Notes: generated by a model not told the origin, from the sequence alone. A DNA stretch of 64,000 bases from an uncultured Acidobacteriota bacterium (GCA_963813155.1 CAWEYG010000001.1:640001-704000); one strand, 5' to 3'. Positions 38,685 to 55,135 are shown, numbered from the stretch's first letter. Program-made: numbers and translations.

Positions 38685-39356
38685 TCATCCGATCTCAGCC
38701 GCGTGGTGCTTCACGACCTTCGCCTGCGCGATGTAGATCGTGTCCTCCGCGATGTTCGTCGCCAGGTCGCCGACGCGCTCCAGGTTCTTCGACACCGAGA
38801 TCAGCTCCAGGCAGTACGAAATCAGCGACGGCGTCTCGGCCATGTAGGTCAGCAGCTCGCGGATGATCGACTGGTTCTTTTCGTCGAGAACGTCGTCCTT
38901 TCGGATGACGCTGTTGGCGAGCACGATGTCGCGGTTGACGAACGAATCGAGCGCGTCTTTGAGCATCGCCTTCGCGATTTCGGCCATGTGGGGAAGATCC
39001 ACGAACGGCTTGACCGGCTTCGGCTTCAGCGTTGCGATCCGCTCCGCTCCCTCCGCAATGTTGACGGCGTGGTCGCCGATCCGCTCGAGATCGTTGTTGA
39101 TCTTGAGCGCCCCGATCAGGAGACGCAGGTCGACGGCGACCGGCTGTTGGAGCGCGAAAAGCTGGATGGCTTCCTCTTCGATCTCGACTTCGGTCCGATC
39201 GATCAACTCGTCGGCCGCGATGACGCCGCGAGCCTGTATGGCTGAGCCTTCCGTCAACGCTTCCACCGCCGCCGCGATCTGCTTCTCCACCTCCGCGCCG
39301 AACAGGATCAGGCGGCGCCGCAGGTGCTCGAGTTGTTCCGCGAAATGTTCCTTCAT
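38685..39356 (-). CDS. phoU: Phosphate signalling complex protein PhoU
   Basis: QQPVAVDLR, DLERIGDHAVNIAE, LERVGDLATNIAE. Confidence 0.95.
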   Translation of the reverse strand: MKEHFAEQLEHLRRRLILFGAEVEKQIAAAVEALTEGSAIQARGVIAADELIDRTEVEIEEEAIQLFALQQPVAVDLRLLIGALKINNDLERIGDHAVNIAEGAERIATLKPKPVKPFVDLPHMAEIAKAMLKDALDSFVNRDIVLANSVIRKDDVLDEKNQSIIRELLTYMAETPSLISYCLELISVSKNLERVGDLATNIAEDTIYIAQAKVVKHHAAEIG

Positions 39357-40936
39357 CTTGACGATCCTCCGGCGGCACGGCGGGGCCGGGCCGCAGGCTC
39401 GCTCGCCCGAAAAACGGGCTTGCGGCCGAATATACGAACAAACAGTTTCGACTTGGCCGCAGCCGCCTCGAGCTCCGCTTCCGGATCCTCGAGCGCCACG
39501 ACCTCGAAAATGACCCTCTTCTGCCGAAGGCGGCAGACGACCGACTCGACGATCTGCCGATGGCCTCGGTCGAGCCCGTCGGCGACGCGCAGGATCGCGG
39601 CGAGCTTTTCCACCGACTGGCGGCGCCACGGGTCGAGGCTCTCCCACTCGGGATGCCTCTCTTTCGGGCGCCCGCCGCGGTGGTAGCGGGCGACCGCCGC
39701 GATCGTCGCGATCTCTTCGGACGAAAATCCCGTGAGGTCACCATGGGTGATGAGGTAGTAGGAGTGTTTGTGATGGCGCGGCATGCCAACCGAGGCGCCC
39801 GCGTCGTGAAGGATCGCGGCGAACCGGAGCCACTCGCGCTCCCTCTCGGTCATCTGGTGGAGCGAGTGAGTCGACTGGAAAATCTCGTCTGAAAGTTTTG
39901 CGACGCAGCGGGCGTGCATCCATTCGACGTTCCAGCGCCCGGCGAGGCGCTCGACGCTCTTTTCCCGCAGGTCCCGGGAAATCGGGGCGACGGAGGCTCC
40001 GCGCGAGCGGGCGAGCGAATCGAGCAGGATTCCCTCCCGCAGCCCCCGCTCCCCCGTCAGGATGTCATCCGCTCCGACCGCCTTCAGCAGCTCCGCGAGC
40101 AGCGCGCCTCCCGCCAGAGCGATGTCCCGGCGCTTCGGGTCGAGACCGGGCACCCGCAGCTTCTCCTTGAGCGTCGTTTTTCGAAGGACCTTCAGGACCT
40201 TTTTCAGGTCACTCCGGGAGAGGGTCCGATGGCCCGACGGGAAGATCTCGCGTCCCCGGATCGCCGCCTCGGAAACCATCGACATCGACTGGATCGTGCC
40301 CGACGTTCCCACGCAGGTCTTGAACCCCGCCTTCCGGATCTTTCGGGCGGCGGGCGCCACACGCCGCCGGACCGCCCGCTTCATGTCTCTCCAGTCGTCC
40401 CGGGAGACCGGATCGTGGCGCACGTATTTCTCGGACAGCCGCACGGCGCCGAGGGCGACCGATTCCGCGGACAACACCCGGTTTCCGTCCGAGACCACGA
40501 GCTCCGTCGAGCCTCCCCCGATGTCGATCAGAAGCAGCGGGTCGCACGAAGCCGGAAATTCGCTTCGAACGGCGAGGGTGATGAGCCGGGCTTCTTCCTC
40601 GCCCGAAATGACCTCGACTTCGACGTCGCAGCGGCGCCGCACGGCCTCGACGAACTCCGCCGCGTTCTCCGCTTCCCGGACCGCGCAGGTCGCGACGGCG
40701 CGGATCGCTTCGGCGCCGGAGGAGCGGGCGATCCGCGCCAGCCTTTCCACGGCCGCCGAGCCCCCTTCGATCGCCTCCGGCGAGAGCTTCCCTGTCGCGA
40801 ACGTCGCGTGGCCGAGCCGGATCATTTCCTTCTCGCGCACCACGGATTCCAGCGAGCCGTCGCGCGAGACGCGCGCGACGAGCAGCTTGACGCTGTTGCT
40901 CCCGATGTCGATCGACGCGAGTGTGCGGGTGTCCAT
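39353..40936 (-). CDS. ppx: Exopolyphosphatase Ppx/GppA with HD domain
   Basis: IDIGSNS, ATCAVREA, GEEEARL, DIGGGSTE, GLREG, LHDAG, HHKHSYY, LRVADGLD. Confidence 0.95.
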   Translation of the reverse strand: MDTRTLASIDIGSNSVKLLVARVSRDGSLESVVREKEMIRLGHATFATGKLSPEAIEGGSAAVERLARIARSSGAEAIRAVATCAVREAENAAEFVEAVRRRCDVEVEVISGEEEARLITLAVRSEFPASCDPLLLIDIGGGSTELVVSDGNRVLSAESVALGAVRLSEKYVRHDPVSRDDWRDMKRAVRRRVAPAARKIRKAGFKTCVGTSGTIQSMSMVSEAAIRGREIFPSGHRTLSRSDLKKVLKVLRKTTLKEKLRVPGLDPKRRDIALAGGALLAELLKAVGADDILTGERGLREGILLDSLARSRGASVAPISRDLREKSVERLAGRWNVEWMHARCVAKLSDEIFQSTHSLHQMTEREREWLRFAAILHDAGASVGMPRHHKHSYYLITHGDLTGFSSEEIATIAAVARYHRGGRPKERHPEWESLDPWRRQSVEKLAAILRVADGLDRGHRQIVESVVCRLRQKRVIFEVVALEDPEAELEAAAAKSKLFVRIFGRKPVFRASEPAARPRRAAGGSSR

Positions 40937-40967
40937 CTCGGTTCGGATCAAATGCGGCCCGGGCGGT

Positions 40968-41001
40968 TTTCCCGTGAAGCCGGTGTAAACAAGGTGTGAA
41001 A
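40968..41001 (-). promoter_or_regulatory. Putative Pho box (three repeats) upstream of ppx-phoU
   Basis: Minus strand TTCACaccttg TTTACaccggc TTCACgggaaa, exact 11-bp period. Confidence 0.75.
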
Positions 41002-41010
41002 CGGACCTCG

Positions 41011-43167
41011 TCACTCCGACCCGACCGCGCGTAAGCCGTGTCGCCTCAGGCGGTCGACCACCACCGCCTGCGAATCCCTTTCGGCTTCGCCTTCGGCGGG
41101 ACGACGCCGCCGGTAAACGCCCTGCGAGTCGAGGTCGCGCGCGCGGCAATTGTCCGCGAGGACCGGCTCGATCACTTCCCGGCGGAGCTTCTCGCGAAGC
41201 GACTCGTTCTGGATCGGGAAGAGGATCTCCACGCGCCGGTAAAAATTCCGCGGCATCCAGTCCGCGGACGAAAGGTAGAACTCCTGGCTCGGGGCGGCCC
41301 CGAAAACGAAGAGGCGCACGTGCTCGAGAAATCGCCCGACCACAGAGAAGACCCGGATGTTCTCGGACGTGCCGGGAATCCCCGGCCGGAGGCAGCAGAT
41401 TCCCCTCACGTTGAGATCGATCGGAACGCCTGCCTGGGACGCGCGGTACAGCGCGCGGATCACCGGCGGATCCGCCAGGGAATTGAGCTTCGCGAAGATG
41501 CCGGAGGGCTTTCTCTCGCGGGCGAGCGCGATCTGCTCGTCGATCTTGGCCAGCACCGTCTCCTGGAGCGTTCGCGGGGCGACGGCGATCCGCCGGTAGC
41601 GCGACTTCTTGGAAAATCCCGATAGCGAATTGAAGAGCTCCGAGGCGTCTTCGCCGATTTCCGGATCGGCCGTGAAGAGGTCGCAGTCCGTGTACACCTT
41701 CGCCGTCGAAGCGTTGTAGTTGCCGGTGGAGAGATGGACGTAGCGAACGAGCTTCTCTTTCTCCCGCCGGACGACGAGCGCCGCCTTCGCGTGGGTTTTC
41801 AGACCCACCGGCCCGTAGAAAACGTGCACGCCCGCCCGCTCCAGCGCCCGGGCCCACAGGATGTTGTTCTCCTCGTCGAACCGGGCCTTCAACTCGATCG
41901 ACACGGCCACCTGCTTGCCGTTCTCCGCGGCCTGGATGAGAGCCCGCACGATCTGGGAGTCCGCGCCGGTCCGGTAAAGTGTCATCTTGATCGCAAGCAC
42001 CTGCGGGTCCCGCGCCGCGCGATGCAGGAATTCGAGGACCGGAGTAAAGGAATCGTACGGGTGATGGAGAAGGACGTCTCCCGCGGCGATCACCTTGAAG
42101 ATGTCGGGCTCCGCGGCCAGCGCGGCGGGAATGGCGGGCACGAGGGGGGGATCGTGAAGATCCGGCCGCTCGAGGCCCGCGATCGACGCGAAGGCCGACA
42201 CGCCGAGGAACCCCGGGCTTTCGTAAACGTCCTCGGCGTCGATTTCGACCTTTTCGATGAGCGTCTGGCGCACCCGATCCGGAATTCCAGGCGCGACCTC
42301 CAGGCGCACGACGGCCCCGAACTTGCGCCGCCGGACTTCCCGGTCGACGACGGAGAGAAGGTCGTGCGCCTCCTCCTCGCGAATTTCCATGTCCATGTCG
42401 CGGGTCACGCGAAAGGGATGGCAGCCGACGATCTCCATGCCCGGAAAGAGGTCGTCCAGGTTAGCGGCGATCAGGGACTCCATCGGAAGGAAATTCTGCA
42501 CGGAGGAGTCCCGCGTTTCCCCGCCGATTTTCTCGAGGGCGTCGAGGGCAACGAAGCGTGGAAGGCTCTCGGGGACCTTGACGCGCGCGAACTTGCGTTC
42601 CCCCGTTTCCGGATCCTTGGCCTCAACTGCGAGCGAGAGGGAGAGGTTCGACAGGAACGGAAAGGGATGTCCCGGATCGACGGCGAGGGGCGTCAGGACC
42701 GGAAAAACGGCCTTCCGGAAATACGCGCGCGCGCGCCGCTTGACGTCCCCGTCGAGGGATTTCCAATCGTGGACCCGGATTCCGTTCTGATCGAGCAGCG
42801 GAAGCAGGTCGCCGGAAAGCGCCTCGGACGCGCGCGCGAGCTGCTGGCGTACGATCTGGCCGATCCGCGCGAGCTGCTCGCTGGCCGTCAGCCCGTCCGA
42901 GCTTCTCTCGCCGATCCGAGCCTCGAGTTGCTCGTGGAGGCCCGAGACCCGGATCATGAAGAACTCGTCGAGATTGCTGTAGAAGATCGCCAGGAACTTC
43001 ACCCGCTCGAGCAGAGGCCAGCGCGGGTCGAGAGCTTCGTCGAGAACCCGTTCGTTGAAGGCGAGCCAGGAAATCTCGCGGTTGAAATACAGGGAAGGGT
43101 CTTCGACGTCGATCGGAACGGCCGTGGGAGTCGAGTCGCGGCGGGCGGATTCTTTCTCTTCCGACAT
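41011..43167 (-). CDS. ppk1: Polyphosphate kinase 1
   Basis: NREISWLAFNERV, NLDEFFMIRV, HHPYDSF, KMTLYRT, ELKARFDE, KTHAK, GRFLEH, SADWMPRN. Confidence 0.97.
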   Translation of the reverse strand: MSEEKESARRDSTPTAVPIDVEDPSLYFNREISWLAFNERVLDEALDPRWPLLERVKFLAIFYSNLDEFFMIRVSGLHEQLEARIGERSSDGLTASEQLARIGQIVRQQLARASEALSGDLLPLLDQNGIRVHDWKSLDGDVKRRARAYFRKAVFPVLTPLAVDPGHPFPFLSNLSLSLAVEAKDPETGERKFARVKVPESLPRFVALDALEKIGGETRDSSVQNFLPMESLIAANLDDLFPGMEIVGCHPFRVTRDMDMEIREEEAHDLLSVVDREVRRRKFGAVVRLEVAPGIPDRVRQTLIEKVEIDAEDVYESPGFLGVSAFASIAGLERPDLHDPPLVPAIPAALAAEPDIFKVIAAGDVLLHHPYDSFTPVLEFLHRAARDPQVLAIKMTLYRTGADSQIVRALIQAAENGKQVAVSIELKARFDEENNILWARALERAGVHVFYGPVGLKTHAKAALVVRREKEKLVRYVHLSTGNYNASTAKVYTDCDLFTADPEIGEDASELFNSLSGFSKKSRYRRIAVAPRTLQETVLAKIDEQIALARERKPSGIFAKLNSLADPPVIRALYRASQAGVPIDLNVRGICCLRPGIPGTSENIRVFSVVGRFLEHVRLFVFGAAPSQEFYLSSADWMPRNFYRRVEILFPIQNESLREKLRREVIEPVLADNCRARDLDSQGVYRRRRPAEGEAERDSQAVVVDRLRRHGLRAVGSE

Positions 43168-44597: not shown

Positions 44598-45374
44598 TCA
44601 GCCCGCCAGAACCGAACCGCCGTTGATATTGACGATTTCGCCGTTGATCTGGCGGGAATAGTCGGAGCAGAGGAACGCGATCATCCCTCCGACGTCGTCG
44701 GCGGTCGCGACGCGCCGGGTCGGGATCGCCTGCTCGATCGCCTTGCGCTTGCGCCGGTTGCCGAGCTCCGCCTTCGACATCTCGGTGTCCACCCAACCGG
44801 GAGCGACCGCGTTGACCGTGATCCCGTCGGGCCCGAGCTCCGTCGCGAGCGACTTCGTGAAAGAGATGATCGCCCCCTTGGTCGCCGCGTAGTGCGAATG
44901 GAACGCCTCGCCCCGCTGGCCCGCCGTCGAGGAAACGTTGACGATCCGGCCGAATCCCTGCTTCTTGAAAACCGGGACCGCGAATTTCGTCATGAGGAAG
45001 GTCCCGCGCGCGTTGATCGCGAAGACTTCCTCCCAGTAGGCGGGCGAAATTTCCTCGATCTTGCCTCCGGGCCAGATTCCCGCGTTGTTGACGAGGATGT
45101 GGAGCCCCCCCAGGCGCGTGACCGCCTGCGCGACGGCGCGTCGGGCCTCGTGCTCGTCGGACACATCGGCCTTCAGGAGCAGCCCGCGGCCCCCCATCGC
45201 TTCGATCTGAGCCGCCGCGAGTTTGGCCTCGCGCTGGCGGCGGCGGTAGACGATCGCGACCTGGCAACCGGCCCGCGCGAGGAATTTCGCCGCCGACAGC
45301 CCGATGCCCCGGGTTCCCCCGGTGACGAGCGCCTTGCGGCCGGAAAGCTCGATCGTGAAAACGGATTGGGTCAT
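44598..45374 (-). CDS. SDR family oxidoreductase (FabG-like)
   Basis: TGGTRGIG, NNAGI, YAATK, NAVAPGWVDT. Confidence 0.92.
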   Translation of the reverse strand: MTQSVFTIELSGRKALVTGGTRGIGLSAAKFLARAGCQVAIVYRRRQREAKLAAAQIEAMGGRGLLLKADVSDEHEARRAVAQAVTRLGGLHILVNNAGIWPGGKIEEISPAYWEEVFAINARGTFLMTKFAVPVFKKQGFGRIVNVSSTAGQRGEAFHSHYAATKGAIISFTKSLATELGPDGITVNAVAPGWVDTEMSKAELGNRRKRKAIEQAIPTRRVATADDVGGMIAFLCSDYSRQINGEIVNINGGSVLAG

Positions 45375-46510
45375 GGCGTCATCTCCCGCAGCTTCGCCAC
45401 CACGAGCCGGGCGATCCGGGCGCTCCCCTCCGGGAGATAGTGCTGAGGCGTGTTGTCGAACTCGCCGGGAGGGAGAGCGTTCCACAGGTCGAGCAGCGGA
45501 ATTCCTCGGCTCCGGCAATATTCCGCCAGCGCGGCGCGGTAACGGTCGTAGATCGTTCGGGCATAAAAGGAATTGTACTCGCGTCCCGAAAACGCTCCGG
45601 AAGCCGGAAAAATGGGGTCGTTGACGACGAGCAGGGCGACGCCCCGATCGGCGGCCATCCGCGCTCCCGCCTCAAGCGTCGCCCATCGCGAATTCGGCAT
45701 CGGGGGATCGTTCGCCCCGCGGTCCGCAAAAAGCGGCTCCGCGGGAAGCGGCATCGACCCGATCCAGGGTTTTCGGGGCATGTACGAGTCGCTCGGGTCG
45801 CCCGGAACGAGCGCGTCGAGGCCCCCGCGCGCGAGAAGAATCGCGAAATCGCGGTAACGGCCCCCTCCCTCGAGCCAGAGAGAATCGCGCCACCACGGAC
45901 GGTTCCCGCACCGCATCTGGCGGATTTCCCAGGTCGAAATGCCGTACTTCGCGGCGAGCTCGCACACATCGTCGTCGTTGGCCCGAAGGATGAGATGAAC
46001 GAAATGCCGAAAGGGCGGGGGGGTGTCTTCCGCCAGGTCGTAAAGGGTGACGAACCAGACGATCGCGTCGGGATCCCGGCGCAGAGCATGCTTCTCGACG
46101 ACGAGATCCTTGAGCGTGTTCGGCGTGTGGTAGCTGAGATTGTATGCCCGCACACGCTTCCCGCGGAGGGTTTCGCCGAGCCGGCCGATCTGGCCCGGGA
46201 TCGCGTCGCGAGAGGGCGAGAAGAGGTCGAAAGAGCCGGAGTCTCCGAGCACCGCGACGCGAAACTCGTCGGGAAGCTTCTTTCGGCCGATCTCGTGCGC
46301 GTCGAGCAGCGGCTCGAGGGGCCACATGACCTGGCTCGGATAGTCTCGAAGGATGTCGAGCCGGGACAGCGACGGCACGAGGTGGCGGTAGATCGAGAGA
46401 TTCTCGACCCTTCTCTCGACGTGGAGAGACGCTTGAAGTGCGTCCACGATCACGAGCAGGGCTACCGCCTTCGCGACGATTCGAATCACGGTGCTCGGCG
46501 ACCAGCTCAC
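45371..46510 (-). CDS. Membrane-anchored SGNH-fold acyltransferase (DltD/AlgJ/PatB-like)
   Basis: N-terminal hydrophobic anchor, VAVLGDS nucleophile motif, YNLS, C-terminal DLW...FDNTPQHY...G; GTGA/ATGA overlaps on both sides. Confidence 0.72.
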   Translation of the reverse strand: MSWSPSTVIRIVAKAVALLVIVDALQASLHVERRVENLSIYRHLVPSLSRLDILRDYPSQVMWPLEPLLDAHEIGRKKLPDEFRVAVLGDSGSFDLFSPSRDAIPGQIGRLGETLRGKRVRAYNLSYHTPNTLKDLVVEKHALRRDPDAIVWFVTLYDLAEDTPPPFRHFVHLILRANDDDVCELAAKYGISTWEIRQMRCGNRPWWRDSLWLEGGGRYRDFAILLARGGLDALVPGDPSDSYMPRKPWIGSMPLPAEPLFADRGANDPPMPNSRWATLEAGARMAADRGVALLVVNDPIFPASGAFSGREYNSFYARTIYDRYRAALAEYCRSRGIPLLDLWNALPPGEFDNTPQHYLPEGSARIARLVVAKLREMTP

Positions 46511-48201
46511 GTCGCGACCGGCCTGGCCGCGGCTCGCTCGGCGAGAAATTTCTCCTTGCACCGCGTCCGGGAGATCTTTCCGCTGGAAGTCTTGACGAGC
46601 CACATCGCGGGGAGGGCGGCAACCGTGCGCGCCACGCAATCGCTCTGCCGCGCGATCGCCTGCCTCACGGCGTCTTCGACCCTTCGCGGAGCATTCGAAT
46701 TCTCCCCTTCGTCCAATTCGAACAGCACGACGACGTCCTCGGTTCCCGCCTCTTCGTTTTCGACGCCGAACGCGACCGTTCTCCCGGGGTGAACGCCCTC
46801 GACGCCGTCCGCCACGAACTCGAGGTCCTGGGGATAGACGTTGTTCCCCCCGACGATGATCAGGTCTTTCTTTCGCCCCGTGACGAAGACTTCGCCGCCG
46901 GAAAGGTACCCGTAGTCGCCCGTGAGGTACCAGCCGTCGTGGAACGCCCTCGCGGTCAGATCCGGACGCCGGAAATATTCCGTCAGCATGCAGTCGCTTC
47001 GGATTGCGAGCTCCCCCACGCGCCGCTCGGAAACGGGTTCGAACGAAGGCCCGAGGACGGTCACGCTCGTGTTCGGGATCGGCGGACCGCACGAAACCAT
47101 CGTGACCGACGCGGAGCCCGGAGCCGGCTTCGCCGCAATCCCGTCGCGGTACAGGCGGGACCGGTCGACCTCCTCGAGGCGAACGGGCTGAGACGGGTCG
47201 CTCTGCGTGATCGCAAGCGTGTTTTCCGCCGTGCCGTACGAAGTCGTCAGCGACAGCGGGTCGAGACCGAGAGGCCGGAACCGCGCGAGGAACATCTCGT
47301 GGCTCGACGCCCGGACCGGCTCGGCGGTGTTGACGAACGCGCGCATCGACGAGAGATCGATCCCTTCCAGCTTCCGGTCGGGGATCTTTCGGGCGAGAAA
47401 GTTGTAAGCGAAATTCGGAAGCCAGCAGAGCGTGGACCGGTCGCGGCTGATCGCCTGAAGCAGCAGCGCGGGGTCGTGGACCCAGTCGATCGGCGAGAGG
47501 ATCGACAGGCGCAGGCCGCGCAGGAGCGGCTGCAGGAAACCCGCGACCAGGCCTCCGTCGTGGTACAGCGGCATCCAGTTCGCGACCCGGTCCGAATCTC
47601 TCACCGAAAGGGCGCGCCCGTAATTCTCGATCTGGCGGAACACCGCCCGGGAGGAGAGAGCGATTCCCTTTTGCAGGCCGGTCGAGCCCGACGAATGCTG
47701 CAGCACAGCGATCGCGTCGGCGTCCTCTCGAAGCTCGCGTCCGACGGCGCGCCGAGCGGCGGCCGGAGAGCAACGCTCGACGGCGACCATCACCGGACGG
47801 CTCGGCGCGTCCTTCGACAGTTTCCGCAGTGTTTCCTCCAGGTCGGCGTTGACGAGAATCGTTCGGGCGCCGCAGATCGCGAGGAGGGCGGCGACGCTCT
47901 TCTCGTAGTAATCGCGCGAGAGCTTTTCCGTCGGCCACGGAAAGATCGACGGGATCGCTCCCAGCAACAGAGGCGCGAGCCAGGCGGACAGGAGAGACGC
48001 GCCCGGTCGGACGATCACGACGACGACGTCTCCCTTGCGGACTCCGGCCCGTTCGAGGGCGTCCGCGTATCCGGAAGCGAGCAGAACGAGGTCGCCGTAG
48101 CTGACCGGCACGATGTCGGCGCCGGGGCCCCAGACGTTCGCGAAGGGACGGCCGGGCTCGGCCTCGGTCAGATCGAGGACGCGACCGAGGAGGCTCGTCA
48201 T
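46507..48201 (-). CDS. Fatty acyl-AMP ligase (FAAL)
   Basis: LQHSSGSTG..KG, WMPLYHDGGL, PNFAY, AEPV, YGTAE followed by the FAAL-type insertion, GRKKDLII.GG.N.YPQDLE, KTSSGK. Confidence 0.9.
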   Translation of the reverse strand: MTSLLGRVLDLTEAEPGRPFANVWGPGADIVPVSYGDLVLLASGYADALERAGVRKGDVVVVIVRPGASLLSAWLAPLLLGAIPSIFPWPTEKLSRDYYEKSVAALLAICGARTILVNADLEETLRKLSKDAPSRPVMVAVERCSPAAARRAVGRELREDADAIAVLQHSSGSTGLQKGIALSSRAVFRQIENYGRALSVRDSDRVANWMPLYHDGGLVAGFLQPLLRGLRLSILSPIDWVHDPALLLQAISRDRSTLCWLPNFAYNFLARKIPDRKLEGIDLSSMRAFVNTAEPVRASSHEMFLARFRPLGLDPLSLTTSYGTAENTLAITQSDPSQPVRLEEVDRSRLYRDGIAAKPAPGSASVTMVSCGPPIPNTSVTVLGPSFEPVSERRVGELAIRSDCMLTEYFRRPDLTARAFHDGWYLTGDYGYLSGGEVFVTGRKKDLIIVGGNNVYPQDLEFVADGVEGVHPGRTVAFGVENEEAGTEDVVVLFELDEGENSNAPRRVEDAVRQAIARQSDCVARTVAALPAMWLVKTSSGKISRTRCKEKFLAERAAARPVAT

Positions 48202-48443
48202 CGCGTCCGGGAGACGATGAGATCTCGAATCTGGCGGACGGTGTCGGCGCGGCCGGCGCCGAGATCCGACGCGTCGATCCTCGCGCCGAATTCGTTTTCC
48301 GCGAAGAGAGAGAGGTCCACGAGCCCGAAAGAGTCCACGACGCCCGACGAGACGAGGGGCTCGTCGTCGCCGATCTCCCGCGAGGCGTCCCGGAAGTAGG
48401 TTTCCGCGATGAAGGATTTCAGGCGCGAAAGCGGTTCGGCCAT
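48198..48443 (-). CDS. Acyl carrier protein (DltC-like)
   Basis: 81 aa, acidic, L..SGVVDSFG phosphopantetheine Ser motif, E.EFG. Confidence 0.9.
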   Translation of the reverse strand: MAEPLSRLKSFIAETYFRDASREIGDDEPLVSSGVVDSFGLVDLSLFAENEFGARIDASDLGAGRADTVRQIRDLIVSRTR

Positions 48444-49976
48444 TCAGCGCGGCCCGGGAAGGACGATCGGCGCGGGCAAGGGCACCGGCTCGATTCCGAA
48501 GCTCGACGTCGTCCCGTTGAAGAATCCCTGCGCCTTCTGCCAGACGAGCGCCCCCACCTGCCGGCCGATCTCGCGGCCCCGCAGATCGCCGTCTCGGAAG
48601 TGGATCCCGCCCCAGCGCCGCGACATCCCCGCCGCATCCGCCGCGTCGGAGAACGTCGCGAACGAAAGCGTCACATCGTTCACCGGTCCGCACCCCGGCT
48701 CTCCTCGGAACGTGTCCTTCGGAATCGTGACTGAAACGCCGAGCGTGTCGTTGCCGGTGAACGAGCTCAGAACCTGCGCTCCCGCCGCGGAATAAATGCT
48801 GTGCCCGGAAAAGTACTCCGGAAACGGAGGCGTCACGATCGTCGCGAGCTGGTACGGCCGCCACTGAGAGGCTGGAATCGTCTGGGTGCCCTCGCAGGGC
48901 CCTGCCCACGCGGAGATGTTTCCGAGCACACCGACGGTAAAGAGGTAGTGAATCGCCGTGATGGGCCGGACCGAATCGTATTCCCGCTTCGCGTCCCACG
49001 CGGCGATCGACGCGTCGAGGAGGGCGTTGCCGAGCGCGAAGAACATCTTCACGTCCTGGGAAATCGTGTGCGCGTCGCGGCGCGAGACGTAGCCGGCGAA
49101 CAGGCACCAGTGCCCGGGGGGGAATTCCGACGACGGACCGTCCGCGAAATACTCGGCCGTCGCCTTCTGCTCGTCGGTCAACCCTGCCGACAGGTTGATG
49201 AGCTCGATCGCCTGCGCCAGATAGGCGGCGTGGTCGGTGGAGGAATATTGCGCCGGGGGCCCCGGGCGAAATTCGTCCCCGCTCGAAAGCGCGAACGGCG
49301 TGACGAGGCCCCACTGCGGCGTCGTATATTTCTGGACGACGGAGCCGCCGTTTCCGTCGGAGACCAGGAGCGGTTGCCAGCGGTTCGGATCCACGACCGC
49401 GCCGGGTTCCGGCGGATTGACGGCGACGTACCCCGTGTAGTCCGAATACGCGCCCGGGTGCAGGTCGCCGAGCTGGTTGGAGCCGTCCCCGTGCCGGTAC
49501 TCGAGCACCGCGTCGGCCGCCGTGTTCCCGATTCCGTCGGGAGACTGAAGATCGCGCGACGAGTCCTCGCGGTCGTAGCCGAGCGATCCCATCAGCGCGT
49601 CGAACTCCGAAGCCTGCGCGGGGAAGAGGTCGACGAGCGCCCGGTATGCCGCGAAGCTCAGCGCCTCTGCGCGATTCGCGTCGGTCCGCTCCTCCGCGGG
49701 CCGCCGCCATGCCCGGTGCGGACGCGTCGGGACCGCGACGTCGTCGTACGCCGCCCACGCGTCGAAGATCGCCGAGTGGAGAACGGCGATCGACCGCGCG
49801 ACGATGGTCGGGCCCGGCTTCGTCTCGCGAACCGCCTGCAGCAGCGCCTCGTTCCACTTCAGAACGGCATTGTCGCCCGGTTGCGGTCCAAGGTTCGTTG
49901 CGCCCCGGAGAGGGACGAGGAACGCGGTCAACGAGAGGATCGAGAGCGGAAGAGCGCGGAATTTCTTGAGTGGCAT
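48444..49976 (-). CDS. Secreted vanadium-dependent haloperoxidase / PAP2-superfamily protein
   Basis: Signal peptide; vanadate/phosphate site motifs KREYDSVRP, PPFPEYFSGHS, SRRWGGIHF. Confidence 0.85.
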   Translation of the reverse strand: MPLKKFRALPLSILSLTAFLVPLRGATNLGPQPGDNAVLKWNEALLQAVRETKPGPTIVARSIAVLHSAIFDAWAAYDDVAVPTRPHRAWRRPAEERTDANRAEALSFAAYRALVDLFPAQASEFDALMGSLGYDREDSSRDLQSPDGIGNTAADAVLEYRHGDGSNQLGDLHPGAYSDYTGYVAVNPPEPGAVVDPNRWQPLLVSDGNGGSVVQKYTTPQWGLVTPFALSSGDEFRPGPPAQYSSTDHAAYLAQAIELINLSAGLTDEQKATAEYFADGPSSEFPPGHWCLFAGYVSRRDAHTISQDVKMFFALGNALLDASIAAWDAKREYDSVRPITAIHYLFTVGVLGNISAWAGPCEGTQTIPASQWRPYQLATIVTPPFPEYFSGHSIYSAAGAQVLSSFTGNDTLGVSVTIPKDTFRGEPGCGPVNDVTLSFATFSDAADAAGMSRRWGGIHFRDGDLRGREIGRQVGALVWQKAQGFFNGTTSSFGIEPVPLPAPIVLPGPR

Positions 49977-50047
49977 CAATGTTTTACCTTTCAAGCCATC
50001 GGAAGTATAGGATAGACTTCTTATCTCCCGGTTCAAGAGGAGGCCCC

Positions 50048-51175
50048 ATGGCGACTGCGGATCCGATTCCGGTTCCTCGGAAGAAGGACTGGATCAACAT
50101 TTCGTTCCTGACCCTGACACCGATCATCGGAGTCGTGGGGACGGCGCTGTACACCTGGAAGTACGGATTCGAGCTGTGGATGCCGATCCTGTGCGTCGGG
50201 ATGTTCGTCGTCGTCGGTCTTTCGGTCTGCGCCGGCTACCACCGGTTCTTCTCGCACAAGAGCTATGAGTGCAGCCCGGCCGTTCAGGCCCTGTACGCTT
50301 TCTTCGGAGCGATGGCCGCGCAGAACTCGATCCTCTGCTGGGCTTCGGACCACCGCGTCCACCACCACTACGTCGATCGCGACTGGGATCCGTACAACAT
50401 CCGGCGCGGCTTCTGGTGGGCGCACTTCTTCTGGATCTTCTACAAAGCGCCCGACGGGAGAACGCGGGACAACGTCGCCGATCTTCAAAAGAATCCCGTC
50501 GTCATGTGGCAGTACCGCTGGAACAAGTTCCTCACCCTGCTCGGCGTCTTCGGCATTCCGCTCGGCGTGGGCTTCCTCTTCGGGAGACCCGTGGCCGGCC
50601 TGCTGTGGGGAGGGTTCCTGAGAATCGCGCTGACGCATCACTCGACGTTTCTCGTCAACTCGATGGCCCACAGCGTCGGCAAACCCACGTTCGCCGCCGA
50701 AGTGTCCGCCCGGGACAACTGGGTCCTCGCCCTCGCGACGTTCGGAGAGGGGTACCACAGCTTTCATCACAAATTTCCGGCGGATTTCCGCAACGGGGTC
50801 CGCTGGTACGACTGGGACCCCGCGAAGTGGCTCATCTGGGCGCTGCGGTCCGTCGGGCTCGCGACGAAGCTCCGGAGCACGGCCGCTCCGGTCGTCGAGC
50901 AGGCGCGGATGCACGCGGCCGTACAGAAGCTCGAACACAAACTCGACGCAATTCCCACCAATCTCGGGGACGAGATCCGTGCAAGAATCATGCGCGCGAA
51001 GGAATCCGTCGAGCACGCGGTCGCTCTCTGGAAGCAGCACACGGAAGAGCGAGCATCGGGAGCGTCGAAGACCTGGCGCGAAACCCGCCGCAAGTGCCAG
51101 GCGCGACTGAGGCAGGCGCGAGTCGAATGGCGCGAGGCCGTCGACATGCTCGCGGGGCTTCCCGAAGCCGCCTAG
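50048..51175 (+). CDS. Delta-9-type membrane fatty acid (acyl-CoA) desaturase
   Basis: His boxes GYHRFFSH, HRVHH and GEGYHSFHH; C-terminal helical extension. Confidence 0.93.
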   Translation: MATADPIPVPRKKDWINISFLTLTPIIGVVGTALYTWKYGFELWMPILCVGMFVVVGLSVCAGYHRFFSHKSYECSPAVQALYAFFGAMAAQNSILCWASDHRVHHHYVDRDWDPYNIRRGFWWAHFFWIFYKAPDGRTRDNVADLQKNPVVMWQYRWNKFLTLLGVFGIPLGVGFLFGRPVAGLLWGGFLRIALTHHSTFLVNSMAHSVGKPTFAAEVSARDNWVLALATFGEGYHSFHHKFPADFRNGVRWYDWDPAKWLIWALRSVGLATKLRSTAAPVVEQARMHAAVQKLEHKLDAIPTNLGDEIRARIMRAKESVEHAVALWKQHTEERASGASKTWRETRRKCQARLRQARVEWREAVDMLAGLPEAA

Positions 51176-51220
51176 ACGGCGGCGCCGAAGCCGCCTGAAC
51201 GGCGGCGCGGGAGCCGCCGA
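51162..51220. terminator. Tandem 23-bp hairpin repeats between convergent genes (putative bidirectional terminator)
   Basis: CCGAAGCCGCCTAGACGGCGGCG (51162-84), CCGAAGCCGCCTGAACGGCGGCG (51185-207) and a partial third unit. Confidence 0.55.
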
Positions 51221-51221
51221 G

Positions 51222-52433
51222 CTACCTTCCGAAGAGCTTCGCCAGGATCGCTCCGCTCTCCCGTAGCGATGTTCCGTAGAAGAATACCCAGCCGAGCATC
51301 ACGTACTGAAACGTGAGGGCAACCGAGGCCGCCCGGCCCGGCAGCCCGCGGGGAACGGCGGGCGCCCCCCGCCGAAAGCGGGTCCACCTCCAGTGCGCGA
51401 AGAGGCCGATCGCGTGCCACAGTCCCCAGGCCGCGAACGCGGCGTCGAGCCCGTGCCACAGGCCGATCGCGACCATCGTCACGGCCTGGCAGACGAAGAC
51501 CGCCGCCGTCTCCGGAAGCCCCGGAGACCGGCGTCGCAGGGCTCGTCCCAGCGGAAAGAACACGTAATCGCGCATCCAGCTCGACAGCGTGATGTGCCAG
51601 CTCTGCCAGAAGCGGGTGAGATTCCGCTGGAGGTAGGGAAACTCGAAGTTCTCCGGAATCGAGAAGCCGACGAGCTTCGCGGTCCCGATCGCGATGTCGG
51701 AGTAGCCCGCGAAATCGAAGAAAAGCTGAAAGCCGAAAACGTAGAGAGAGATCCACATCCGCGGAGTCGATAACCCGGCGTGCGGCAGGTCCAGGGGAAG
51801 GCCGCCGAGAAAGTCGGCGAGCGCGAACTTCTTGAAGATTCCGACGAGAACGCGGCGGCCGCCCTCCGCGATCTCGCCGAACTTCGGCTTCGGATAGTCC
51901 TCGTTGCGGCGGAAACTCGGAAAGCGGTCGATCGGACCCGCGACGAGCGTCGACGGAAACAGCACGTAGAGGAGCAGTTCGGAAAAGCGCATTTCGGGAA
52001 AACCGGGGCGCCGCGCTTCGACGAGAACGTGGATCAGCCGGAACAGAACGTAGGAGGCGCCGAGCCACGCTCCGAGCGAAAGCAGGTACTTGCCGGGAAT
52101 ATGGAGGGCCGCGTACGTCGCGCGCTGCAGCCCGGACCACTTCAGGCCCAGGAGAACGAGCAGCAGCGCGGCCACGCCGAGCCGGCAGTTCCGTTCGCGG
52201 CGCTTCGACGTCGCGGCCCGATAGACGGCGAAGACGAGGCCGATCGAGAGGAGAAAGAGCAGCGCCGAGAGGCGGCGCGCCGGAACGTGGCGCAGGGACA
52301 GGAGGACCCCCAGAACGACCGTCGCGCAGAGGAGGATCGCCCGCCGAGCGCCTGCGCCGCCCGCGAAAAAGTAGAGCGCCACCGCGGCTGTCGCCGCGAG
52401 CAGGACCGGCGCCGGCGAGCTGAAGACCTCCAT
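51222..52433 (-). CDS. MBOAT family O-acyltransferase (DltB/AlgI-like)
   Basis: AGPIDR, FDFAGYSDIAIG, PENFEFPY, FWQSWHITLSSW.RDY, catalytic GLWHG. Confidence 0.95.
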   Translation of the reverse strand: MEVFSSPAPVLLAATAAVALYFFAGGAGARRAILLCATVVLGVLLSLRHVPARRLSALLFLLSIGLVFAVYRAATSKRRERNCRLGVAALLLVLLGLKWSGLQRATYAALHIPGKYLLSLGAWLGASYVLFRLIHVLVEARRPGFPEMRFSELLLYVLFPSTLVAGPIDRFPSFRRNEDYPKPKFGEIAEGGRRVLVGIFKKFALADFLGGLPLDLPHAGLSTPRMWISLYVFGFQLFFDFAGYSDIAIGTAKLVGFSIPENFEFPYLQRNLTRFWQSWHITLSSWMRDYVFFPLGRALRRRSPGLPETAAVFVCQAVTMVAIGLWHGLDAAFAAWGLWHAIGLFAHWRWTRFRRGAPAVPRGLPGRAASVALTFQYVMLGWVFFYGTSLRESGAILAKLFGR

Positions 52434-52577
52434 TCAAAATGCCTGATAGATGAACGGGATTGGCTGGCCTCGCCAGAAGATCGCGATCGCCGCCAGCAGC
52501 AGAAAGAGCAGGAACGCCGCGACGTTCTCCCGACGCCACCACCGGACCGTTTCGGACGCCGGGGCCGCTTCGCTCAT
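52434..52577 (-). CDS. DltX-like 47-aa single-TM acyl-shuttle microprotein
   Basis: MSEAAPASETVRWWRRENVAAFLLFLLLAAIAIFWRGQPIPFIYQAF. ATGA overlap with the GT2 stop; its own stop abuts the MBOAT ATG; C-terminal FIYxxF. Confidence 0.85.
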   Translation of the reverse strand: MSEAAPASETVRWWRRENVAAFLLFLLLAAIAIFWRGQPIPFIYQAF

Positions 52578-53467
52578 CCCGCGATCTCCCGCGCGACAAT
52601 TCTTCTCCCGAAGAGGACGCGCCACGACGCCGCGAGCAATCCGAGAAAGAAAAACAACCTGCGCCGGCGGGCCCGGCCGTGCGCGACGGAGCGGCAGTAC
52701 TGCCAGTATTTCCGGCGCAGCGCCTCGCGCAATCGCCCTTTCGCGACCGCCCGGATCGTGAAAAAGAGCTCGTTCTTGTAAAACCCGAAATTGTCGTAGA
52801 TGTGGGTCTTCACCCGGCTTCCTCCGTACGGCGACGCGAGGTGGACGAGGACGGCCCGCGGCTCGTAATAGATCCGCTGGCCGGCCGCCGCCATCCGAAG
52901 CGAAAGGTCGCTCTCTTCCCGAAACGAATTTCCCCTGTAGCGCTCGTCGAACCCGCCGACTCTCAACGCGTCCTCCACGCGCAGCGCGCAATTGCCGCCC
53001 GGAAAGGCGTTCGTGAAACCGGGCTCGGTCGCGGTGAACATTCCGTGCGTGATCGCGAACTCGTCGAACCAGAGGACGTCCCTTCCAACGGGAAATCCCT
53101 CCTGCAGGACACGGCCTCCGACGGCGCTCAGCTCCGGGCGGCTGCGGAAGGATTCCAGAAAAATCTCCACCAGGTCATTGCTCATCTTCACGTCGTCGTC
53201 GACGAAAACGAGGTAAGGAGCCCGCGCGCGCCGCAGCGCAAAGTTGCGCGCCGCCGTCAGCGACGGAGGGCCCGTTCGAAAGTAGCGAAAACGACGATCC
53301 CGGATGCCGTCGAGGGCGAGCCGTGTCTCGTGCCGGTGCGACCGCGTTTGATCGACGACCAGGAGCTCGAGATTCCCGTGACTCTGGGCGAGCACGTCCC
53401 GGATCGTCGCGAGCAACTCTTCTTCACGGTTGTAGGTGGGAATCGCGACCGTGATGTCGGGATCCAT
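52574..53467 (-). CDS. Glycosyltransferase family 2
   Basis: ITVAIPTYNR, LVVDQ, ARN, FVDDD, GGFDE, EESDL..R. Confidence 0.92.
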   Translation of the reverse strand: MDPDITVAIPTYNREEELLATIRDVLAQSHGNLELLVVDQTRSHRHETRLALDGIRDRRFRYFRTGPPSLTAARNFALRRARAPYLVFVDDDVKMSNDLVEIFLESFRSRPELSAVGGRVLQEGFPVGRDVLWFDEFAITHGMFTATEPGFTNAFPGGNCALRVEDALRVGGFDERYRGNSFREESDLSLRMAAAGQRIYYEPRAVLVHLASPYGGSRVKTHIYDNFGFYKNELFFTIRAVAKGRLREALRRKYWQYCRSVAHGRARRRRLFFFLGLLAASWRVLFGRRIVAREIAG

Positions 53468-53473
53468 CGGCCG

Positions 53474-54749
53474 CTACAGCATCCTGCCGACAAGCGCCGC
53501 GAGCGTATCGGGCAGGGGCACGGACTCCTTCGTCGCATCATCGGCTTCTGCGCACGCGATGAGGACGCCCTGCAGCTCCGCGGCCGAGAATTTCGCGGCT
53601 CGCTGGTAGCACTTGTACCAGAGGTAGGGGCTCCCCTCCAGGAGAGACGAGGAAAAGGGCCCCACGGGCTCGGAGAGGCGCGGGTGAACCCGGGCCGTAT
53701 ACGTTCCGTACGTGATCGAGGGATCGATCTTCGTTCGCGTCTCGTCGCAGCGAGCCTTGACGATCAGGAGCCTTCGCACTTCCGAGAAGAACATGGAGAA
53801 AAATCCGCGGAGGGGATCGTCTCCTTTGAGCTCGCGATCCCCCGCCCGAAGGGCGCGGCCCGAAAGAACCCGGCCGAGCCGGTGGAAGGTCTCGGCGCGA
53901 TCGCGCCGTCCGAGAGAGTCGAAGAACGCGTACAGATCCTCGGAACGCCCGTCGGCGACGAGGGCCTCCACGTCGCCGGACGCGCACCTTTCCGCCCGAT
54001 TCCGCCCACGCGAGCACCTTTTCGAGCTCGGAGTCGAAGCGCCGGGGGTCGGCTTCGGTGAGCCGCAGAAGCGCCTCGACGGCGGCGGGATCGAGAGCCA
54101 CGTCCTTCTCCGCCGCGAGCTTCTTCGCCCGCGACGCGAGGAAACGGGCAAATTCCTCCGGCTTGGAGGAGACGTCGTTGATCGTGCCATGCTTTCGGAA
54201 AGCCTGATAGAGAGCGGAAGTTTTCGGGGGATCGACGGCGCGGGCGAGCAGAACCGTGCCCGCGAGACCTCTTTCGAGGTGCTCGAGCACGGCCGAAGCC
54301 GCGGGCGCCGCGTCGCCGATCGGTCCGGGGAGGGCCCGAAGGATCTCCAGCAGAGTCTCGGCCGCCTCGGGACGCCGCGCCTTCTGGGCCGCGGCCGCGG
54401 CGGCCTCCTCCGGCGAGCCCTGGATTCTCAGGGCGGAAAGCAGCGCGCGAGTCTTCTTGAACGCCTCCCGCCGGCCCGAAGGCGTGTCCTTGATCCACGC
54501 TTCGACGGCTTCCTCGACGAGCGAACCCGGAGACTCCCGGCCGAAGAGGCCCGAAAGGTCGGCTTCGACGAGCCGTTTCTCGGCGAAAAGGGAGCCGTGG
54601 GTGAGCGCGATCGGGAGCCGATCGGCAAGGTCCTCGTCGGAGATTCTCTCGACTTCAGTCTCCGGGGAGGCGAGCGATGCGCGGATTTCCTCGGCGGCTT
54701 CGTCCACGAAAAACTCGTGGCTGCCGGTCACGAGAATCGCCTGACTCAG
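53474..54749 (-). CDS. holA: DNA polymerase III delta subunit (indel near 53990; start approximate)
   Basis: ILVTGSHEFFVD, SLFAEKRLV, ELEKV, C-terminal AAKFS..EL...ADDATK; usual genomic context. Confidence 0.75.
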
Positions 54750-55135
54750 TCGAGGAGCCCTTTTTCCGACAGTTCCATGCAGTCGAGGCAATACGGCGTC
54801 CAGGGAACCGCTTCGAGGCGCTTCTCCATCAGCGGGCTCGAGCAGTGGGTACACGTGCCGTAGATGCCTTCATCGATCCGGACAAGAGCCTGCTCGATCA
54901 GCTGAACGAGTGTCCGTTCGGTGTCGCTCAGGGAAAAGAGGAATTCCTTCGTGTAGGAAGACGTCGCCTTGTCGGCGATGTCCTGCGTCGACTCGTCCGA
55001 GTTCTCCTGACCCGCGTCCTTGTTCTTGACGAGCTCCTGCGAAATCTCGTCTTTCTTCGCGAGGAGGGAGCGACGGTACTTTTCCACGTCTTTCTTCGAA
55101 ACCCGCACGCTGGATGACTTGGCAGAAGTTGGCAT
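54746..55135 (-). CDS. dksA: TraR/DksA C4 zinc-finger protein
   Basis: DIADKA coiled-coil tip, AL.RI..G.YG.CTHC...RLEAVPW..YCLDC. Confidence 0.85.
   Translation of the reverse strand: MPTSAKSSSVRVSKKDVEKYRRSLLAKKDEISQELVKNKDAGQENSDESTQDIADKATSSYTKEFLFSLSDTERTLVQLIEQALVRIDEGIYGTCTHCSSPLMEKRLEAVPWTPYCLDCMELSEKGLLD

Follow-up and report, generated by a model that had tools for sequence, protein, structure and literature searches.

Can an acyl relay of the Dlt type, in which a carrier-bound acyl group is passed across the cytoplasmic membrane, be fed by an enzyme of the fatty-acid-activating class instead of DltA? This question is raised by a gene locus of an uncultured soil Acidobacteriota bacterium that was detected in a DNA stretch of 64,000 nucleotides (GCA_963813155.1 CAWEYG010000001.1:640001-704000), hereafter called the window, whose numbering is used for all positions unless a different locus is named. 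The locus encodes a microprotein with a C-terminal tyrosine motif, an MBOAT (membrane-bound O-acyltransferase) of the DltB type, a membrane-anchored protein with an SGNH fold, a stand-alone acyl carrier protein (ACP) and an adenylating enzyme that is assigned by its sequence to the fatty acyl-AMP ligase (FAAL) class. These five genes represent a core that is linked in two bacterial phyla. By analogy with the known pathway, the locus probably specifies an acyl relay of the Dlt type that depends on a carrier protein, traverses the cytoplasmic membrane and receives its acyl groups from the FAAL-class enzyme in place of DltA. The system is real, widespread and uncharacterised.

According to PMC12148441, the acyl group of the Dlt route is transferred from the carrier protein to DltB, further to the tyrosine of the FXYXXF motif of DltX, then to a serine of DltD and finally to the acceptor. 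Among the bacterial MBOAT-SGNH pathways, only the Dlt system of Firmicutes is said in this text to use a carrier protein together with a separate tyrosine microprotein, whereas the other pathways lack a carrier and carry the tyrosine motif within the MBOAT itself, on two additional fused helices (PMC12148441).

Gene arrangement and conservation of the core

The G+C content of the region is 64-67%, and spurious open reading frames (ORFs) are therefore plentiful. The gene list was limited to ORFs with support by a Pfam or NCBIfam family and was supplemented with the motif-bearing microprotein. The resulting nine genes are listed below, with minus-strand genes in transcription order.

52574..53467, minus strand: GT2 glycosyltransferase (block 1, first gene in transcription order)
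52434..52577, minus strand: microprotein of 47 amino acids ending in FIYQAF-stop (block 1)
51222..52433, minus strand: DltB-type MBOAT of 403 amino acids (block 1)
50045..51175, plus strand: membrane fatty-acid desaturase (between the blocks, convergent with the MBOAT gene)
48444..49976, minus strand: secreted DUF6851 and VCPO_2nd (PAP2-type) protein of 510 amino acids (block 2, first gene)
48198..48443, minus strand: stand-alone ACP of 81 amino acids (block 2)
46507..48201, minus strand: adenylating enzyme of the FAAL class by sequence, 564 amino acids (block 2)
45371..46510, minus strand: membrane-anchored SGNH-fold protein of 379 amino acids (block 2)
44598..45374, minus strand: FabG-like short-chain dehydrogenase/reductase (SDR; block 2, last gene)

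In block 1, the GT2 and microprotein genes share the sequence ATGA and the microprotein and MBOAT genes abut in TGAATG. The junctions of block 2 are TGAATG between the PAP2-like and ACP genes, ATGA between the ACP and FAAL genes, GTGA between the FAAL and SGNH genes and ATGA between the SGNH and SDR genes. An initial reading of the window, referred to here as the first-pass annotation, had placed the five core parts at these coordinates and had described them as coupled to each other and to the GT2 and SDR genes by overlapping or abutting stop and start codons; all five ORFs were found there on the minus strand, and each junction reads as ATGA, GTGA or TGAATG. The gene list of this annotation was correct with respect to the five parts, the GT2 and the SDR, and had missed the PAP2-like gene as well as the desaturase gene on the opposite strand between the two blocks.

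The observed arrangement is far beyond chance, because synteny was seen in each of the four further family members inspected and because the core recurs in another phylum. With the exception of the GT2 gene, the whole arrangement of the window was kept in these four loci. A comparison of 41 relatives of the window genome, which as kin are not independent, located the close copies of the MBOAT, SGNH and FAAL genes in the same six genomes, including the unpublished genome G002. By means of the window queries, all three genes were not found in G005, a genome of the same family with a completeness of 96%, nor in the other two families.

To the wider distribution, a pattern scan of species-level genomes for relatives of the SGNH protein contributed at least 510 hits, the best 80 loci of which were analyzed. 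This set comprises four loci of Acidobacteriota, 75 of Chloroflexota (mostly Anaerolineae) and one of an unclassified bacterium, and many of the loci are cut by contig ends. In 74 of the 80 loci, the SGNH gene is immediately preceded by an MBOAT gene; an ACP gene is present in 48 loci and a FAAL gene in 46. The typical order in Chloroflexota is a single operon consisting of the genes for a small lipoprotein, the microprotein, the MBOAT, the SGNH protein, a second SGNH-like lipoprotein, the ACP and the FAAL. Clustering of the neighbouring genes in the 76 non-acidobacterial loci resulted in a merged MBOAT/SGNH cluster with representatives in 75 loci, followed by the second SGNH-like lipoprotein (44 loci), the ACP (41), the FAAL (40) and a lipoprotein of 136 amino acids (38); several further clusters turned out to be antisense ORFs inside the core genes. 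The recurrent clusters of these 76 loci included no other user of acyl-ACP: ketosynthases, condensation domains and cytoplasmic acyltransferases were all absent from them, as were alanine racemase and any other Dlt gene.

Two of these recurrent genes are missing from the window locus, namely those encoding the second SGNH lipoprotein and the 136-amino-acid lipoprotein. The former lies between the SGNH and ACP genes and the latter, for which no family is known, precedes the microprotein gene, as exemplified by locus L044 (11120-12136 and 7959-8375), L043 (11064-12131) and L059 (1225-1635).

In all five Chloroflexota genomes examined that lack a local FAAL gene, a single FAAL with 45-49% identity is encoded elsewhere, with an adjoining ACP gene in three of the five cases and a second SGNH gene in two. 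The first-pass annotation had regarded co-occurrence of the two halves in other genomes as decisive for its proposal; the neighbourhood survey revealed that they form a single operon in Chloroflexota and that genomes with a split arrangement keep the FAAL elsewhere.

A quick, midpoint-rooted tree of the SGNH proteins with 79 rows, from which L034 and L110 were left out (high-scoring segment pairs of less than 330 amino acids), placed the four Thermoanaerobaculia rows in one clade with an SH-like approximate likelihood ratio (SH-aLRT) support of 100, as sister group to three Chloroflexota rows (support 99). No donor phylum is claimed on the basis of this midpoint rooting.

Relationship of the core proteins to known families

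The MBOAT encoded in the window matched the Pfam family MBOAT with 62.8 bits, and its sole match in NCBIfam was DltB (TIGR04091; E = 4.7e-63, 213.7 bits). A profile built from an alignment of 23 MBOAT sequences matched only two sequences in the PDB, both of them DltB (8jem, E = 9.2e-69; 6bug, E = 1.1e-68), and no PatA or AlgI structure came up in this search to compete with DltB. Two histidines, His280 in the motif WHITL and His327, are invariant in the 23 sequences, all of which end near KLFG and none of which carries a fused C-terminal FxYxxF tail; the greater length of the Chloroflexota proteins is confined to the N-terminus. As in the Dlt system, the MBOAT therefore has a catalytic-type histidine and is devoid of fused C-terminal tyrosine helices, in contrast to five more distant MBOATs from members of the same taxonomic order, which end in a fused F[ILV]Y..F-stop.

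The microprotein is a single-pass protein with Tyr44 located in the C-terminal FIYQAF-stop, and thus shares with DltX both the position of its gene next to that of the MBOAT and the C-terminal motif of the FxYxxF type. An alignment of 23 homologues from the two phyla revealed that Tyr44 and Phe47 are invariant, and that Glu17, Asn18, Ile43, Gln45 and Gly46 are nearly so. Among the 80 loci, 62 contain an ORF of 38-60 amino acids that ends in [FWY][IVL]Y.[GAS]F-stop, typically in [FW]IYQ[GA]F-stop, and in those cases in which it had an MBOAT ORF as partner, this motif ORF is usually located 0-32 nucleotides upstream. The microprotein matched no Pfam or NCBIfam family, and the alignment profile matched nothing in the PDB at E ≤ 10. 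A prediction of the complex of the MBOAT and the microprotein yielded scores of 0.25 and 0.02, which are below the mark of 0.32 and give no verdict either way. By analogy with DltX, the microprotein is a candidate acyl shuttle with Tyr44 as putative acyl acceptor.

A second kind of split tyrosine microprotein, with 39-40 amino acids and the ending F[LI]YVDF-stop, was observed in Thermoanaerobaculia at L023 9887-10009 (plus strand, genome G007) and L026 10658-10777 (minus strand, genome G033). Its gene is located between an SGNH-like gene, block V of which reads DHCH, and a gene for a short MBOAT of 396-404 amino acids, followed by that of an NHL-repeat protein. DltX-like microproteins thus seem to be more varied than indicated by the literature.

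The only Pfam signal of the SGNH protein was a sub-threshold match to Lipase_GDSL_2 (25.7 bits versus a cut-off of 32.9 bits). In an alignment of 23 sequences that reaches down to 26% identity, Ser91 (in the motif GDS), Asn297 and His357 are invariant, and the profile deduced from it matched nothing in the PDB at E ≤ 1. The AlphaFold model of the protein, with a predicted local distance difference test (pLDDT) value of 88.6 and a predicted template modelling (pTM) score of 0.90, comprises an N-terminal helix at residues 5-29. When compared with VIA-align, the model resembled many SGNH enzymes with Z scores of 13-15.7. The DltD entries among them had Z scores of 14.3-14.8 and provided the longest alignments with 275-288 residues, the other matches with Z ≥ 14 covering 164-225 residues. 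A Ser-His active site, on which the first-pass annotation had made its proposal depend, is present in the form of the invariant residues Ser91 and His357 and the SGNH fold of the model. The SGNH protein is a candidate for a DltD-like transferase of the last step.

The SGNH family is small, with 78 clusters obtained by a word-based search and 286 representatives at 1e-30 out of 1.84 billion. Eight matching proteins (P0089, P0091, P0097, P0126, P0138, P0150, P0173 and P0226) have 650-690 amino acids and match the SGNH family in their first or second half only, which suggests tandem or fused forms. At L039 7035-16582, a family member is encoded next to a divergent PAP2 protein, without an MBOAT match, a constellation that recalls the pairing of PAP2-like and SGNH genes in the window; the neighbouring genes of L039 resemble those of mobile elements (Bro-N, Prim-Pol, ParA/ParB-like and AAA ATPase).

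The ACP matched PF00550 (PP-binding) with 20.8 bits, which is exactly the cut-off, and its NCBIfam matches were all weak, including ACP_for_OlsHI with 39.7 bits (cut-off 130 bits) and DltC with 19.9 bits (cut-off 68 bits). In the PDB, DltC was matched at 2.5e-4 alongside other carrier proteins. The block SSG..DSF.L.D is conserved to at least 90% in 47 sequences, and the phosphopantetheine arm is putatively attached to Ser38 in VDSFG. A link to the ornithine-lipid GH3 pathway described in PMC12493201 was considered on the basis of the match to ACP_for_OlsHI, the best one of the ACP in NCBIfam, and dropped in view of the score of 39.7 versus 130 bits; no GH3 or OlsI family match was detected in the nine locus proteins scanned.

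The adenylating enzyme belongs to the AMP-binding family of Pfam (154 bits). Its best NCBIfam match was the fatty acyl-AMP ligase PRK09192 with 345 bits, followed by FadD32, MbtM and other FAAL models, whereas the amino-acid adenylation domain scored 110 bits and no DltA model appeared among the best 25 matches. Likewise, the best matches in the PDB were FAALs (3pbk with 3.8e-65, followed by 7r7g, 3kxw and FadD32), and no DltA was present among the 57 matches at ≤ 1e-10. The motifs WMPLYHDGGL and PNFAY both occur in the translation, and six Chloroflexota homologues contain W[LM]PLYHD[MG]GL. Moreover, the spacing between YGTAE and GEL is 74 residues, compared with 37 residues in the ACSL-like enzyme of the same genome, the only other ANL enzyme found there by tblastn. 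The extra segment of approximately 37 residues, which we take to be the FAAL-specific insertion after YGxAE in the sense of the FAAL literature, aligned without gaps with the E. coli FAAL 3pbk and is 15 residues shorter in three of the six Chloroflexota homologues. According to its sequence, the ligase is thus a member of the FAAL class and not a DltA or an amino-acid adenylase. The rankings in NCBIfam and PDB, the motifs and the spacing of 74 residues bear out the FAAL signatures that had been proposed for this enzyme from the first inspection of the window.

Proposed acyl relay and alternative explanations

In the proposed relay, the carboxylic acid adenylated by the FAAL would most likely be a fatty acid or a hydroxy-fatty acid, and the enzyme would load it as a thioester onto the phosphopantetheine arm of the ACP. 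At the cytoplasmic face of the membrane, the DltB-like MBOAT would take the acyl group from acyl-ACP and transfer it by means of His280 to Tyr44 in the FIYQAF motif of the microprotein at the outer face. Ser91 of the SGNH protein would then receive it, His357 serving as the base, and the protein would pass it to an extracytoplasmic acceptor, which may be a glycan, a lipid or a protein. The relay interpretation of the first-pass annotation is supported overall by the data presented above, with the identity of the acyl group, the hand-off from ACP to MBOAT and the acceptor being inferred from family, architecture and co-occurrence.

Several observations weigh against this interpretation. The ligase scored below the curated cut-off of every FAAL model, including PRK09192 (345 versus 600 bits), and its substrate is therefore assigned by family resemblance only. 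The equivalog cut-off of DltB (375 bits) was missed by the MBOAT of the window (213.7 bits) as well as by a Chloroflexota homologue (208.8 bits). The Pfam model DltX (PF12459) had no match in the whole genome at E ≤ 10, with B. subtilis and L. lactis as positive controls, and only a marginal one in one of the 23 microprotein homologues (E = 0.033); similarly, the Pfam model DltD had no match in the genome and a marginal one in one of the 23 members of the SGNH family (E = 0.038). Relative to His357, the alignment of the SGNH proteins contains no aspartate at position -3 and either Asp or Asn at position -4, and the Z scores of DltD are tied with those of generic SGNH esterases. Additionally, ACP or FAAL genes were not seen locally in 32-34 of the 80 loci. 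At L023 and L026, neither of the two genes is present within the 14-20 kb examined, and no FAAL was found in G033 at E ≤ 1e-60; a split microprotein alone is therefore no proof of a carrier-protein donor. Finally, the SGNH gene of G006 is split into two frames (L022 3404-3438), as is the FAAL gene of G001 (L019 14519-14547), and the FAAL gene of G002 (G002:C181 18837-20504) contains one in-frame TGA. These interruptions in relatives may be assembly errors of metagenome-assembled genomes or may indicate decay of the system.

The loci with a split microprotein and without a nearby ACP or FAAL gene (L023 and L026), the local absence of ACP or FAAL genes elsewhere among the 80 loci and the fact that the hand-off between ACP and MBOAT is itself deduced would all be compatible with two functions that merely share a product. 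According to this explanation, which appears unlikely, the trio of MBOAT, microprotein and SGNH protein is an O-acyltransferase that uses acyl-CoA, for instance acetyl-CoA, in the manner of PatAB or AlgIJ, and the FAAL-ACP pair makes or lipidates a different molecule in the cytoplasm, for instance a lipid or glycolipid that is subsequently modified by the trio. The linkage of the genes would then reflect a common target molecule and not a supply of the MBOAT by the ACP. However, the conserved operon of Chloroflexota contains no other enzyme that uses acyl-ACP, and the FAAL gene (five of five genomes) and the ACP gene (three of five) were found elsewhere when they are not local. Moreover, DltB was the sole PDB match of the MBOAT profile, and no other MBOAT is known to use a carrier-protein donor (PMC12148441); this match is, however, limited by the fact that no PatA or AlgI structure came up as a competitor. 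An ordinary Dlt aminoacylation, in which the ligase activates D-alanine or a small amino or hydroxy acid and an anionic envelope polymer is decorated, would likewise agree with the architecture of a carrier, a DltB-like MBOAT, a tyrosine microprotein and an anchored SGNH protein, and the FAAL scores, all of which are below the cut-offs, would be compatible with a different specificity. It is nevertheless improbable, given the score of 345 bits for FAAL versus 110 bits for amino-acid adenylation, the lack of DltA among the best 25 NCBIfam and the 57 PDB matches, the YHD motif of the FAAL type, the extra segment of approximately 37 residues and the absence of an alanine racemase or another Dlt gene from the conserved set.

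The SGNH protein itself might be a hydrolase, that is, a lipase or esterase module that performs an editing or release step, so that nothing is exported onto an acceptor. Many genuine esterases and thioesterases, TesA among them, occur among its top fold matches and tie with DltD in Z score, and in Pfam it gave a signal only with the generic family of GDSL lipases. The longest structural alignments were nonetheless those to DltD (275-288 residues), and the position of the SGNH gene beside an MBOAT gene in 74 and a tyrosine microprotein gene in 62 of the 80 loci corresponds to the known arrangement of MBOAT-SGNH transferase pairs as described in PMC12148441; a mere hydrolase is accordingly about as improbable as aminoacylation. 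That the genes are unrelated neighbours with a coincidental likeness to Dlt, as might be suspected from the opposite-strand desaturase gene that separates the two blocks of the window, is extremely improbable and is contradicted by the co-location in a second phylum, the co-occurrence when the halves are split and the joint absence in relatives.

The FAAL-fed relay, as the most probable explanation, shares with DltXABCD the same five roles, specified by a stand-alone adenylase, a small carrier, a DltB-like MBOAT, a split microprotein of the FxYxxF type and an N-terminally anchored SGNH protein. It differs from DltXABCD in that the adenylase is assigned to the FAAL class, the microprotein and the SGNH protein fall outside the Pfam families DltX and DltD, and the MBOAT and ACP score below the cut-offs of DltB and DltC. 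The hosts are members of the Acidobacteriota and Chloroflexota and not Firmicutes, the gene order is different, and many Chloroflexota operons contain a second SGNH lipoprotein in addition. To our knowledge, both host phyla are devoid of teichoic acids. With the FAAL-ACP pairs of E. coli (3PBK), Legionella (3KXW) and mycobacteria (FadD32), which include the best PDB relatives of the ligase, the system has the YHD motif, the extra segment and an adjacent carrier in common. These known pairs deliver the acyl chain to cytoplasmic polyketide synthases, nonribosomal peptide synthetases or enzymes of lipid synthesis, whereas the only conserved partners in the present case are the DltB-like MBOAT, the tyrosine microprotein and the SGNH proteins. 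The eukaryotic MBOATs HHAT, PORCN and GOAT use acyl-CoA, have neither a tyrosine shuttle nor an SGNH partner and acylate proteins directly. What they have in common with the proposed relay is the ability of an MBOAT to deliver fatty acyl chains of medium or long length to acceptors on the opposite side of a membrane. PatA/PatB, AlgI/J/F/X and the acetylation systems of cellulose and of the secondary cell wall polysaccharides (SCWP) likewise combine an MBOAT with an SGNH protein on the extracytoplasmic side and have a tyrosine hexapeptide as presumed shuttle, but according to PMC12148441 their tyrosine motif is fused to the MBOAT and a carrier is lacking, whereas the motif is encoded by a separate gene in the window and linked to ACP and ligase genes.

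The statement in the first-pass annotation that no characterised example is known agrees with our literature search, in which no MBOAT-SGNH system fed by a FAAL or by fatty acids was found, although such a system may be mentioned in the 2023 paper on the DltX mechanism (ref. 25 of PMC12148441) or in supplements. The Lipocone preprint (10.1101/2025.01.14.632903) was considered as a possible description and set aside, since in its accessible part MBOAT and SGNH are mentioned only in an unrelated operon. Altogether, these data suggest that the Dlt architecture has a second, widespread form, the loading enzyme of which is of the fatty-acid-activating class. On a more tentative level, and with a probability that we regard as slightly short of even, this form might represent a second, phylum-wide class of carrier-fed relays consisting of MBOAT, tyrosine microprotein and SGNH protein that use ATP-activated long-chain fatty acids for lipidation at the outer face; no fewer than several hundred species of Chloroflexota and one family of Thermoanaerobaculia would then possess it, with the window as an acidobacterial offshoot. 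If true, this would set it apart from all bacterial routes of extracytoplasmic fatty acylation characterised so far. Known extracytoplasmic routes borrow the acyl group from phospholipids or use acetyl-CoA. If the acyl group is a fatty acid, the system would provide an ATP-driven means of attaching lipid chains to extracytoplasmic components of the envelope and an entry point to the envelopes of Anaerolineae and Thermoanaerobaculia, which have hardly been studied. The small number of conserved residues, namely His280 of the MBOAT, Tyr44 of the microprotein, Ser91 and His357 of the SGNH protein and Ser38 of the ACP, makes this idea directly testable.

With respect to the host envelope, LpxC is present in the window genome, and the host therefore makes lipid A. 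The first-pass annotation had placed the system in a diderm, which holds for the window genome; the majority of carriers belong to the Chloroflexota, and a search for LpxC in five of these, the completeness of which is not stated, gave no match. For the whole family, an acceptor specific to lipopolysaccharide is accordingly improbable. As a speculation, a lipid or glycan carrying phosphate might be involved in the acidobacterial lineage, to judge from the PAP2 motifs kept in the PAP2-like protein and the abutment of its gene on that of the ACP.

Accessory genes and the surrounding region

The genes for the GT2, SDR, desaturase and PAP2-like proteins are lineage-specific extras, because they are present in only 2, 6, 4 and 5 of the 80 wider loci, respectively. 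The PAP2-like protein, which resembles vanadium haloperoxidases, matched DUF6851 (142 bits) and VCPO_2nd (93 bits), has an N-terminus resembling a signal peptide and displays the motifs KxxxxxxRP, SGH and SRxxxxxH in its translation; its gene is syntenic in four of four family loci. The same applies to the gene of the desaturase, which matched PF00487 with 66 bits. The SDR was assigned to adh_short_C2 (224 bits) and, with 234 bits against a cut-off of 222 bits, to the FabG subfamily, and its gene was found in three of the four family loci, the fourth being cut by a contig end. In the acidobacterial lineage, all four proteins may have an influence on the structure of the acyl group or of the acceptor. 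The GT2, which matched Glycos_transf_2 with 71.9 bits, is conserved at the genus level only: its gene is present in one of the four family loci, which belongs to the same genus, and one of the two occurrences in the wider set is L032, a contig of the unpublished genome G002. The GT2 was consequently rejected as a conserved maker of the acceptor, and the earlier suggestion that the acceptor is perhaps made by this enzyme is unsupported.

Further features were observed around the locus. At 38685-43167, upstream of the locus, a phosphate-related set of PhoU-like, Ppx/GppA-like and polyphosphate kinase ORFs was noted, as judged by the look of the translations. At 53474-54854 on the minus strand, two overlapping ORFs (53538-54854 and 53474-54190) look like one gene that is frameshifted near 54100-54190, either by an assembly error or by a real break; from the look of its translation, this gene may be a holA-like gene for the delta subunit of DNA polymerase III. 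The divergent PAP2-like and desaturase genes are separated by an AT-richer spacer of 68 nucleotides (49977-50044), and a GC-rich inverted repeat at 51176-51221 between the stop codons of the convergent desaturase and MBOAT genes could represent a shared terminator.

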